Under the pieces are notes generated by a model. That model had not been told where the DNA came from, ran no database searches, and was given only the letters and a program-made list of their open reading frames with translations. Shown here piece by piece: positions 35,294-40,393 of a DNA stretch of 64,000 bases. The DNA comes from an uncultured Candidatus Saccharibacteria bacterium (lineage in GTDB: Bacteria; Patescibacteriota; Saccharimonadia; Saccharimonadales; JAGQNJ01). Within the stretch, counting starts at the first letter, position 1, and every line of letters starts with the position of its first letter. The stretch is taken from assembly GCA_964584895.1 (NCBI GenBank), contig CAZPAW010000001.1:270183-334182 (forward strand), given 5' to 3'. Made by a program: the position numbers and the translations under genes.

Positions 35294-36814
35294 TTATAAT
35301 TCGTGAACAACGGAGATTTTGGCGCCGAGTGAGTTCAAGCGTTCGGCGATATCCTCGTATCCCCGGTTAATGGTGTAGACATTACGAAGCATTGACGTAC
35401 CCTCTGCTGCTAGCATTCCGATTAGGAGTAAACTTGCGGGCCTAAGTGCGGGTGGCGACACAACATCAGCATGCGTAAATTCTGTTGGGCCATTAATATA
35501 GACACGATAAGGGTCGGCTAGTTCTATGTTTGCACCGATTTTGCTCATCTCTGTGTAATATATCGCACGATTCTCGAACATCCAGTCATGGATCAATGTT
35601 CTTCCTTTGCAAACTGAGGCTATCGGTACAAAGTACGGGATGCAATCAGGATTAACACCGGGCCACAAGTTGGGGTGGAGTTTGTCTTTTAGTGCATGAA
35701 GTGACCCGTCGTGTTTATCGATTGTAATATCTGCTAGGTCTATAACGCCGTTATCGGCCTTGTACGATTTTGATAATCTATAAATTAGGCCCATTTTCTT
35801 CAGCTTTAATAACTCTAGACCAATCCATCGATAAGGAACTCTTTTAATAGTTAATTTTGAATTGGTTGTAATGGCTGTCGAAATAAAGAACATTGCCTCT
35901 ATAGGGTCTTCGGTTGGCGCAAAAGTAATGTTCTTTTTTATGTTTTTTACGCCGTGAATTTTAAGAGTTGTTGTGCCAAACCCTGATATTTTAACACCTA
36001 GTTTTTGTAAAAATAATGTTAAATCCTGAACCATGTAATCTGCGCTGGCTGCAGAAATTGTAGTTTCGCTTGTTGTGCCAGCAGCCGCTAATAGTGCATT
36101 ATTAGTAACCGTATTGCCTTGTTCGTAAAGCACGAAATCACCAGCCGGTTTTTTATTAACGGTTACGTCATATTTGCCTGTTGTTGCTTTTATTGTAACG
36201 CCAAAATTTTCTAGTGCGTATAAGTGTGGCGCAACCGATCTACGTCCCAGTTTGCACCCACCGGCGTAGGGGATTTTGAAGTGACTGTATTCATGCATCA
36301 AAACTCCGAGTAGCATTAATATGCTCCTAGTTTTTACAGCGCTTTTTTTATTAATTTTTTCGAGCTCTAGCTTCGCGGGACGACGAATCTCCAGATCATT
36401 ATTATTGCCCCATTTAATTTTTACCCCTATGCTTTCTAGCACTTCAATGATTCTGTAGACTTCTTCTATTCGAGGGAATGATTTGAATCGTGTTACACCG
36501 TTATTGAGTAAACTAGCGCAAAGCAGGGCAACTGCAGCATTTTTGCTTTGTTTTAAAGTTATTGATCCGCTCAGTTTTCGGCCACCTTCTACGCGCAAAT
36601 TAATAGATTTGTCACTAATGTTAATTAGTGATTTATTCAATACTTCACTAATCCTGCCAAGCATGTCGAGGCTCATATTTTGTCGACCGTGTTCTATACG
36701 ATTTACGGCTGATTGACTAGTTTTTAGTTGTTTTGCAAACTCTGCTTGAGTTAATCCCTTATCTAGTCGTATCTGATAAATTAAGTGCCCAATTTTTTCA
36801 TTTGTGCTTTTCAT
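35294..36814 (-). CDS. murA: XRE-family HTH domain fused to UDP-N-acetylglucosamine 1-carboxyvinyltransferase (MurA)
   Basis: Residues 1-65 are a Cro/C1 HTH (GLTQAEFAKQLKTSQSAVNRIEHG). The remainder is MurA: LSGSITLKQSKNAAVALLCASLL, and the active-site Cys is retained in AGGCKLGRRSV. Confidence 0.85.
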   Translation of the reverse strand: MKSTNEKIGHLIYQIRLDKGLTQAEFAKQLKTSQSAVNRIEHGRQNMSLDMLGRISEVLNKSLINISDKSINLRVEGGRKLSGSITLKQSKNAAVALLCASLLNNGVTRFKSFPRIEEVYRIIEVLESIGVKIKWGNNNDLEIRRPAKLELEKINKKSAVKTRSILMLLGVLMHEYSHFKIPYAGGCKLGRRSVAPHLYALENFGVTIKATTGKYDVTVNKKPAGDFVLYEQGNTVTNNALLAAAGTTSETTISAASADYMVQDLTLFLQKLGVKISGFGTTTLKIHGVKNIKKNITFAPTEDPIEAMFFISTAITTNSKLTIKRVPYRWIGLELLKLKKMGLIYRLSKSYKADNGVIDLADITIDKHDGSLHALKDKLHPNLWPGVNPDCIPYFVPIASVCKGRTLIHDWMFENRAIYYTEMSKIGANIELADPYRVYINGPTEFTHADVVSPPALRPASLLLIGMLAAEGTSMLRNVYTINRGYEDIAERLNSLGAKISVVHEL

Positions 36815-36905
36815 GTATCAAAAAGTATATCACAAGAAGGATAACAATTATTTCCTTTGTTGCACTGCTTGCAATGGTTTACAATAGACTTTCAGAAGTA
36901 TTGGT

Positions 36906-37937
36906 ATGTTACCTTCAGAATTATTTATACAACAAACAACTTATGTAATTGGCTTATCGCTGTTCTCTTTTTTTGTTGCAGTCGTTCTGACGCCATTCTA
37001 TTCGCATTTCGCTTATAAGCATAAGTGGTGGAAGCGTTCTAGAACTCATTCTGTGACCGGAGAAGAATTAAAAATAATAAAAAAACTAGACATCAAACGC
37101 CAGGTACCTATGATGGCTGGTTTGGTGTTCGTGTTAGCGATATCAATAACCACACTGGCTTTTAATCTTGATCGTGGGCAAACTTGGCTACCGTTAGCGG
37201 CGTTAGTTGGCGGAGGGTTGGTTGGATTGATTGATGATGCAATAAATTTAAGAGGTAGTGGTGGAAATGTGGCTGGCCTAAGACCGATAGTTAAATTTAC
37301 CTTAATAACTGCAGTGGCTGTAGTGGCAGCCTTGTTTTTCTACTATAAGCTTGGATACGACACGGTACATATTCCGTTCTCCGGTGATTTCTTTGTTGGC
37401 TGGTTATTGATTCCATTGTTTGTTCTTGTGGTTGTCAGCACTGGTAATGCAGTCAACATTACAGATGGTATGGATGGTTTGGCTGGTGGCGTATTGATTA
37501 GCTCCTATGGTGCATTTGGAATTATCGCGGCTCTACAAGGTCTATTTGGAATAGCGGGCTTTTGTTTTACGGTAATCGGAGCATTGTTGTCTTATCTGTG
37601 GTTCAATATACCACCTGCTCGGTTTTTTATGGGGGATGTTGGTTCTTTTGCTTTAGGTACTTCTTTAGGTGTAATTGCTATGCTAACTGACGCACTATTT
37701 CTGCTACCGATTATTGCATTAATATTTGTAGCAGAAGCTGGTTCGGTTGTATTGCAAACGTTTTCAAAAAAGTTATTCAAACGGAAAATCTTTATTGCCT
37801 CTCCGATTCATCATCATTTCGAAGCTTTAGGTTGGCCAAAGACAAAAGTTACCATGAGGTTTTGGGTGATTGCGCAGGTATGCGCAGCTTTAGGAATTGC
37901 CTTGGCTCTAACTGGTGGATTTATTTATCTGAATTAG
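36906..37937 (+). CDS. mraY: Phospho-N-acetylmuramoyl-pentapeptide transferase MraY
   Basis: Polytopic membrane protein with NAVNITDGMDGLA, MGDVGS and PIHHHFE motifs. Confidence 0.9.
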   Translation: MLPSELFIQQTTYVIGLSLFSFFVAVVLTPFYSHFAYKHKWWKRSRTHSVTGEELKIIKKLDIKRQVPMMAGLVFVLAISITTLAFNLDRGQTWLPLAALVGGGLVGLIDDAINLRGSGGNVAGLRPIVKFTLITAVAVVAALFFYYKLGYDTVHIPFSGDFFVGWLLIPLFVLVVVSTGNAVNITDGMDGLAGGVLISSYGAFGIIAALQGLFGIAGFCFTVIGALLSYLWFNIPPARFFMGDVGSFALGTSLGVIAMLTDALFLLPIIALIFVAEAGSVVLQTFSKKLFKRKIFIASPIHHHFEALGWPKTKVTMRFWVIAQVCAALGIALALTGGFIYLN

Positions 37938-40343: not shown

Positions 40344-40393
40344 ACAACTATTATACTTGTTTTTGTCTCAACTATTTTTTAAAATAATAACAG

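Follow-up and report, generated by a model that had tools for sequence, protein, structure and literature searches.

A MurA enzyme carrying an N-terminal helix-turn-helix domain in Saccharibacteria and Actinomycetota, and a candidate operator at the promoter of its own gene

What would a DNA-binding domain do on MurA, the fosfomycin target that opens the pathway of peptidoglycan synthesis? The question is raised by a stretch of 64,000 nucleotides (nt) from an uncultured Candidatus Saccharibacteria bacterium (GenBank assembly GCA_964584895.1, contig CAZPAW010000001.1, positions 270,183 to 334,182), referred to below as the window, in which the gene at 35294..36814 on the minus strand encodes a helix-turn-helix (HTH) domain followed by a complete MurA. 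The catalytic and the DNA-binding domain share one polypeptide, here called HTH-MurA, which is a real, widespread and, as it seems, undescribed variant of MurA. An earlier note on the window had suggested that the HTH domain couples the enzyme to transcription of the cell-wall genes. Comparison with related loci points to a more restricted role, in which HTH-MurA most likely represses its own promoter, that is, to autoregulation rather than control of cell-wall genes.

The gene comprises 506 codons and a stop codon, opens with an ATG and encodes the only MurA of the genome, being its sole match to the EPSP_synthase fold (PF00275) across 903,040 bases in 20 contigs (98.93% complete); the downstream pathway genes murB and mraY lie within 3.5 kb. 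The XRE/Cro-C1 type HTH_3 domain occupies amino acids (aa) 12-63 (36626..36781, minus strand) and was recognized by Pfam PF01381 with an E-value of 8.2e-13 and 48.6 bits against a gathering cut-off of 23; it also weakly matches the NCBIfam model PRK08154, named 'anaerobic benzoate catabolism transcriptional regulator' (E 1.2e-4). A poorly conserved linker of 11 aa (aa 64-74; 36593..36625, minus strand) leads into the MurA (UDP-N-acetylglucosamine (UDP-GlcNAc) 1-carboxyvinyltransferase, EC 2.5.1.7) domain at aa 75-503 (35306..36592, minus strand), delimited by Pfam, NCBIfam and Protein Data Bank (PDB) alignments. PF00275 matches aa 75-493 with an E-value of 1.5e-36 and is covered at model positions 1-417 of 417, whereas PDB MurA chains (e.g., 1uae and 5ujs) align with aa 68-503 at E-values from 4e-51 to 4e-40, and their KNA, GGC..G.R, D and R motifs coincide with those of the window protein. 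The canonical MurA of these structures has the same full-length fold, to which the window protein adds about 70 N-terminal residues. Because the protein misses the cut-off of the equivalog TIGR01072 (291.5 versus 392.7 bits) and only narrowly exceeds that of the NCBIfam MurA subfamily NF006873 (302.9 versus 297 bits, aa 72-503), it is regarded as a divergent MurA; it also falls below the cut-off of NF009470 (206.6 versus 552 bits). Pfam and NCBIfam thus bear out the earlier description of a 506-aa open reading frame joining an XRE-type HTH domain to a full MurA, and the peptides quoted for it are present, among them SKNAA and AGGCKLGRR.

The enzyme half is intact at its key positions. All 41 aligned fused sequences, the window protein included, have K91, N92, C187, R192, D390, R416 and R458, which we equate with E. 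coli Lys22, Asn23, Cys115, Arg120, Asp305, Arg371 and Arg397. The N-terminal signature and the Cys loop of MurA are accordingly retained, as had been proposed, and with all seven residues in place the MurA half looks active. The fosfomycin-target cysteine C187 is encoded at 36254..36256 (minus strand), and its presence predicts sensitivity to fosfomycin.

The HTH half is conserved like the enzyme half and is under purifying selection within the genus of the window genome. The ratio of nonsynonymous to synonymous differences (pN/pS) in this genus is 0.07/0.72 for the HTH domain and 0.057/0.70 for MurA, with pN ranging over 0.07-0.11 and 0.06-0.08, respectively, and synonymous sites being saturated (pS 0.70-0.85). 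Identity averaged over all pairs of the 41 fused sequences is highest in the recognition-helix stretch (67%), followed by MurA (57%), the HTH domain as a whole (51%) and the linker (30%). The predicted recognition helix S33-E41 (SQSAVNRIE; 36692..36718, minus strand) was placed from conservation in these sequences, and we take it to be helix 3 according to the general XRE family pattern; S33, Q34, S35 and R39 occur in at least 90% of them, and E41 and G43 are invariant. By sequence, the nearest solved structures for the HTH domain are dimeric DNA-binding XRE proteins, namely restriction-modification controller proteins, ClgR, HipB, SinR and CylR2.

The fusion is far from confined to the window. 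A survey of the phylum covered 401 genomes, 369 of which had a MurA match, and 150 places were listed. Among these, 44 are fused (match starting at query residue 9 or earlier, the window genome included; 41-74% identity), 24 are close relatives with 41-56% identity whose matches start at residues 29-73, four of them with upstream stop codons, and the rest are distant MurAs without the HTH domain (30-37% identity). Matches were found in 40 of 41 nearer relatives, nearly all of them full length (the tally includes the unpublished genome G404, at 70% identity), and 20 loci of these 40 relatives were taken into the locus set. The fused loci examined below comprise 63 from Patescibacteria genomes, 79 from metagenome relatives and 80 from Actinomycetota; the non-fused close relatives G071, G158, G018, G223, G347 and G192 and the truncated fused gene of G303 stand outside the examined loci. 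The members share one layout, an HTH_3 domain, a short linker and MurA in about 500-510 aa with a helix of the form TSQSA[VI].R[IM]E.G.QN, and the window protein fits it.

Database searches extended the family to a second phylum. The best 120 database matches, with 73-88% identity, all (120 of 120) carry both PF00275 and PF01381, and several are labelled as MurA of Candidatus Saccharibacteria or Saccharimonadales. A profile search against 1.84 billion representative proteins returned as its top match a Nonomuraea protein that is 52% identical to the window protein across all 506 residues, HTH domain included. The best 120 matches of this Nonomuraea protein again all have both domains and come from genera including Nonomuraea, Thermoactinospora, Streptomyces, Actinacidiphila, Streptacidiphilus, Peterkaempfera and Marinactinospora. 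Atlas clusters combining HTH_3 and EPSP_synthase, queried with the homologue P0008, are most common in Saccharimonadota and Actinomycetota, and the names on further matches include Candidatus Colwellbacteria, Taylorbacteria, Liptonbacteria and Parcubacteria. The domain-architecture survey that had been suggested for this locus therefore returned a widespread fusion, present in both Patescibacteria and Actinomycetota. A different and far larger MurA fusion was also seen, the 1204-aa protein P0205, in which the MurA domain occupies aa 753-1198.

The evidence that bears most directly on the role of the HTH domain lies upstream of the gene. Many of the fused murA genes are preceded, about 29 nt before the start codon, by an 18-bp palindrome, TATAYCA-N4-TGRTATA, which was first read by eye in the upstream DNA of fused relatives and is scored here over its 14 specified positions in the interval -200..+90 around the start codon. 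Matches of at least 12/14 are present in 39 of 63 fused loci versus 1 of 18 non-fused close relatives, and matches of at least 13/14 in 24 of 63 versus 0 of 18. Outside the murA starts, 231,590 positions of the fused loci contain only five such sites. None of the four fused loci whose helices have strongly diverged (L033, L035, L041 and L043) reaches 12/14. Among the metagenome relatives (69-75% identity; 79 of 80 loci, one having too little upstream DNA), 43 of 79 reach at least 12/14, and the palindrome begins at -29 or -30 in 65 of 79. In five genomes scanned throughout, full palindromes are scarce, and the murA site ranks first or shares the first rank. A perfect site occurs nowhere but at murA in genomes G396 and G263, and in G383 murA has one of the two perfect sites. 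The second perfect palindrome of G383 (L082, G383:C1:990248) is intergenic and forms the centre of a perfect inverted repeat of about 42 bp.

The palindrome also has a fixed place in the promoter. In most fused loci its right half coincides with an extended, TGnTATAAT-like -10 box whose end lies 7-11 nt upstream of the ATG, so that a leaderless mRNA is expected; its left half lies in the promoter spacer, and in several loci the palindrome fills the 17-nt gap between TTGACA and the -10 box. A distance of 11 bp separates the centres of the half-sites, as would be usual for an HTH protein binding as a dimer. Two simpler origins of the repeat were considered and rejected. The left half-site does not serve as the -10 box of a divergent glyA promoter, as glyA has its own TACAAT box 60-90 nt away, situated 6-7 nt before the glyA start codon in the relatives, and the palindrome also occurs in loci with a terminator directly upstream instead of glyA. 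Neither is it a general promoter feature, since there are only 3-14 sites with at most two mismatches per genome and the equally leaderless murB promoters lack it in 16 of 17 genomes.

A second version of the palindrome is present in Actinomycetota, where DNA of about 70% G+C carries ATCTCA-N4-TGAGAT upstream of the fused gene in 80 of 80 loci, at -28..-30 in 79 of them and at -36 in one. The form CATCTCATATCTGAGATA is found in 43 of the 80 loci, and the flanking sequence is unrelated. The helix TSQSAVNRIERG is common to the fusion proteins of these loci, which over their full length show 52% identity to the window protein. These palindromes are the strongest independent support for reading the repeat as an operator.

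The history of the fusion was followed on a rapidly built maximum-likelihood tree of MurA domains, which included 26 of the 41 aligned fused rows. The fused or non-fused state requires at least ten changes on this tree, and non-fused genes stand among fused ones (L024/L044, L029/L047, and L049 with L025/L035). Together with HTH remnants containing stop codons upstream of murA in G129, G167 and G021, this nesting indicates that the HTH domain was lost repeatedly, and hence that MurA function does not require it. A stand-alone HTH domain in G433 was discarded as a candidate, because the match merely ends at the contig end. On the best tree the Actinomycetota form one tight clade inside Patescibacteria, with a support of 99 in the Shimodaira-Hasegawa-like approximate likelihood ratio test (SH-aLRT); a tree keeping Patescibacteria together was not rejected by the approximately unbiased (AU) test (p 0.10). 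The gene seems to have been transferred between Saccharibacteria and Actinomycetota, in whichever direction. A long-branched fused clade (P0129, P0131, P0139, P0140, P0143, P0170 and P0180) keeps the canonical recognition helix, whereas the equivalents of the catalytic Arg and Cys have been lost, and that of Lys as well in some of its proteins; these proteins are probably regulators in which an inactive MurA fold serves as the sensor.

The window itself retains half of the putative operator. Its murA promoter contains the extended -10 element TGaTATACT at 36824..36832 (minus strand), a promoter by inference from sequence; with the end of this element 9 nt upstream of the ATG, the mRNA would have no leader or almost none. 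Most fused relatives have the same geometry, with the -10 box 7-11 nt before the ATG. The palindrome survives as the remnant TATCCTT-cttg-TGATATA at 36826..36843 (minus strand), which matches 10/14 specified positions, with the right half intact and the left half at 4/7, scores 9.6 bits with a position weight matrix (PWM) and lies where it does in the relatives. Both congeners are degenerate as well (TATCCAC-ttta-TGATATA in G402 and TACCCAT-ccta-TGATATT in G401). As the left half has decayed also in G401, which has glyA beside murA, the decay is independent of the insertion of mraY seen in the window. Autorepression in the window genome and its genus is thus probably weak or exerted through a half-site, and the persistence of a selected HTH domain without a good operator may reflect tolerance of a half-site reinforced by its promoter context, or a second role of the domain.

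We assign a probability of roughly 0.65 to the reading that HTH-MurA is an active MurA that represses its own promoter and so acts as a trigger enzyme. Two HTH domains, one from each subunit of a dimer, would bind the 18-bp palindrome at half-sites whose centres are 11 bp apart, and the bound protein would cover the extended -10 box with the right half and the promoter spacer with the left half. RNA polymerase would then be occluded, and an increase in HTH-MurA protein would lower transcription of murA, amounting to negative autoregulation. More speculatively, binding of substrate or product to the MurA domain could modulate the binding of DNA.

Several observations weigh against this scheme. 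The connection between the HTH domain and the palindrome is correlative, and conservation of the right half-site is confounded by its overlap with the -10 box. A dimer is proposed for HTH-MurA, whereas descriptions of MurA usually make it a monomer. The Fisher tests for the association with the fused form (p 2e-5 at 12/14 or better and 9e-4 at 13/14 or better) are overstated, as they ignore the kinship of the genomes, and 24 of the 63 fused loci score below 12/14. A phylogenetically independent test on six pairs went in the right direction and is underpowered: the palindrome follows the fusion in 4.5 pairs, opposes it in 0.6 and is unchanged in 1.0 (median p 0.22). As to the window genome, the search for an inverted repeat suggested in the earlier note gave none with a seed of at least 6 in 36815..36905, where only the 10/14 remnant is found, and none in 36760..36960. 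A score of 9.6 bits is reached about 30 times per genome in random sequence, and operator-like sites are not enriched genome-wide, with 25 PWM hits of at least 10 bits versus about 30 after permutation. The best site of the genome (19.1 bits) lies in a coding region and was equalled or beaten in 17.5% of permutations. A regulon in the window genome was accordingly dropped as a candidate, its top site being an unexceptional one inside a ROK-kinase-like open reading frame, with no enrichment.

A further-reaching version, which is conceivable and which we hold only tentatively, makes HTH-MurA a metabolite-sensing switch through which the substrate supply of MurA would itself set murA transcription, with no separate regulator. 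MurA undergoes a large open-to-closed movement on ligand binding, and UDP-N-acetylmuramic acid (UDP-MurNAc) is its feedback inhibitor. Binding of UDP-GlcNAc, phosphoenolpyruvate or UDP-MurNAc would drive this movement and alter the pairing of the HTH domains on the operator. The P0129-type clade, which keeps the recognition helix after losing catalysis and so has the look of a pure sensor, would fit such a switch, as would the apparent movement of the gene between Saccharibacteria and Actinomycetota, the phylum of the known Saccharibacteria hosts.

Alternatively, the palindrome could serve another, unlinked regulator, and the HTH domain could act in protein contact, nucleoid tethering or localisation, or as a degradation tag. 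This would account for a window genome that keeps a selected HTH domain without a good palindrome anywhere, and the correlative, sequence-based nature of the link between the two leaves room for it. We nevertheless consider it unlikely, because the palindrome tracks the fused form (39/63 versus 1/18), the palindrome and the same recognition helix are kept together across two phyla, no part of the HTH domain is better conserved than the recognition helix, and the nearest solved relatives of the domain are all DNA-binding dimers. The idea in the earlier note that the HTH domain has become a protein-interaction module is likewise tenable for the window genome and leaves the operator of the relatives unexplained.

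It also seems improbable that HTH-MurA is mainly a broader regulator of cell-wall genes such as mraY and murB rather than an autoregulator. In the window genome, murA and mraY do share a 91-bp control region, genome G263 has a 13/14 palindrome 11 nt before murB, and sites with at most two mismatches number 3, 5, 8, 12 and 14 in five genomes, as compared with 3, 5, 1, 4 and 3 for the reversed pattern, so that three of the five exceed their control (8 vs 1, 12 vs 4 and 14 vs 3). Against this, the counts in the other two, G396 and G218, equal the control, the window genome has no enrichment, the murB site is found in only 1 of 17 genomes and the mraY neighbourhood in 0 of 79 metagenome relatives. 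What stands of the proposed coupling to cell-wall gene transcription is therefore the link to the enzyme's own promoter, indicated by the palindrome of the relatives; its extension to other cell-wall genes finds little in these counts (murB 1/17, mraY 0/79).

A decidedly improbable explanation is that the HTH domain of this genus has lost its operator and is heading for loss, as has happened in relatives, or that it acts weakly through a half-site. In its favour, all three genomes of the genus have a degenerate left half, the tree demands at least ten changes between fused and non-fused states, non-fused genes are sisters of fused ones, and remnants persist in G129, G167 and G021. A domain on its way out is hard to reconcile with a pN/pS of about 0.1 in the genus, like that of the enzyme, albeit with saturated synonymous sites, and with the presence of all conserved HTH residues in the window protein. 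Finally, a frameshift or assembly error joining two genes, raised in the earlier note as a possible refutation, has a negligible chance of being correct and is rejected, given that the gene is the genome's only MurA, 120 of 120 best matches and 44 listed places of the phylum survey share its architecture, and named Nonomuraea and Streptomyces isolates do so too.

The surroundings of the gene are a lineage-specific arrangement. The intergenic region at 36815..36905 measures 91 bp, the distance given earlier for the divergent pair, and is shared with mraY (36906..37937, plus strand), whose identity is supported by TIGR00445 (203.3 bits versus a cut-off of 192) and which is the only Glycos_transf_4 gene of the genome. 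It is followed by glyA and murB. Only the window genome and its congener G402 have mraY beside murA (0 of 79 metagenome relatives), whereas glyA faces murA in G401 and in 69 of 79 metagenome relatives; mraY is thus a lineage-specific insertion between murA and glyA, standing there alone and outside any division or cell-wall cluster, and its neighbourhood is incidental to HTH-MurA and not conserved. The -10-like box nearest to mraY, TACAAT, lies 20 nt upstream of the annotated start and has the appearance of the former glyA promoter.

The promoters of the clade have further features in common. The murA, murB and glyA genes lack a Shine-Dalgarno sequence, and the -10 box of each lies 6-11 nt ahead of the start codon (36824..36832 and 40344..40372 in the window; loci L002-L109 in the relatives), and leaderless mRNAs seem to be the rule in this clade. 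The palindrome precedes murB in 1 of 17 genomes examined and is not found at murB of the window; the site in G263 (L084, G263:C1:452217) lies on a TGGTATAAT leaderless promoter and suggests that the presumed regulon has been extended in this lineage. A joint murA and murB regulon was set aside as a candidate, being found in G263 only. About ten genomes of relatives (L097-L109) have a box TTGCAAGC (or GCAAGC) some 8-12 nt before the murB -10 box, too close for a normal -35 box, and ATTGCAAGCA occurs in the murA-mraY intergenic region of the window at 36866..36875; the TTGCAAGC/ATTGCAAGCA box may be the site of another regulator.

Enzymes with a DNA-binding domain of their own are known among the trigger enzymes, for example BirA, PutA and NadR. 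HTH-MurA resembles them in uniting an enzyme and a DNA-binding domain in one polypeptide that would target the promoter of its own gene or pathway, and differs in the enzymes and folds involved, here MurA and an XRE-type HTH_3 domain. Ligand control of DNA binding is established for BirA, PutA and NadR, whereas for HTH-MurA it is a conjecture. The regulator BzdR of Azoarcus sp. CIB reportedly combines an XRE-type HTH domain with a shikimate-kinase-like, non-catalytic sensor domain. Its order of an N-terminal HTH_3 domain, a linker and an enzyme-fold C-terminal domain is that of HTH-MurA; the window protein differs in keeping all seven catalytic residues, and the P0129-type clade would be the closer analogue. 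The term trigger enzyme is used here as defined in the consulted portion of PMC6524683, which cites Commichau and Stulke 2008.

In Streptomyces, the fusion is taken to be MurA2. At the HTH-MurA locus of S. venezuelae ATCC 10712 a divergent aconitase gene lies upstream, and the arrangement of SCO5998 (MurA2) and SCO5999 (aconitase) is described in the accessible text of PMC12161575; on this synteny, rather than on direct mapping of locus tags, the actinomycete member is taken as MurA2 (SCO5998; sven5810 / vnz_28735). MurA2 (509 aa) has the same PF01381 and PF00275 architecture and the same catalytic residues as the window protein, and it and its Actinomycetota orthologues have the same helix, TSQSAVNRIE.G, and a palindrome about 29 nt before the start. 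The two groups differ in the operator variant, ATCTCA-N4-TGAGAT in Actinomycetota, and in copy number: MurA2 is one of two such transferases in S. coelicolor, according to the available text of PMC12161575, whereas the window gene is the only MurA of its genome. Excerpts of Streptomyces reports state that murA2/SCO5998 is footprinted by BldM-WhiI (PMC4125116), that its overexpression was without effect on exploration (PMC11005364), that it is SigB-dependent (PMC8346170) and that it is predicted to adjoin a DmdR1 site (PMC12161575). In the portions consulted, all four sources treat murA2 as a UDP-GlcNAc transferase gene with no mention of the HTH domain (PMC4125116, PMC11005364, PMC8346170, PMC12161575). 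A search of the full-text literature, whose coverage excludes most subscription journals, returned no description of an HTH domain on MurA or of MurA as a regulator. Whether the architecture was already well described, a reservation of the earlier note, can be answered in part: it is abundant in databases, Streptomyces MurA2 included, and no published role was found within that coverage.

These findings bear on how a cell may control its commitment to peptidoglycan synthesis. MurA is subject to feedback inhibition by UDP-MurNAc and, in Firmicutes, to ClpCP proteolysis steered by ReoM and ReoY, and all controls of MurA known to us act on the protein. A MurA with a built-in repressor would, if the proposal is correct, represent a different and very economical form of control, suited to genomes of less than 1 Mb with few regulators. 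The window genome would be an exception within the family, with an HTH domain under selection despite a half-decayed operator, which suggests either that weak sites are tolerated or that the domain has a second role. As the same protein is MurA2 in the genetically tractable Streptomyces, the idea could be tested there and may be transferable to the uncultivated Saccharibacteria.

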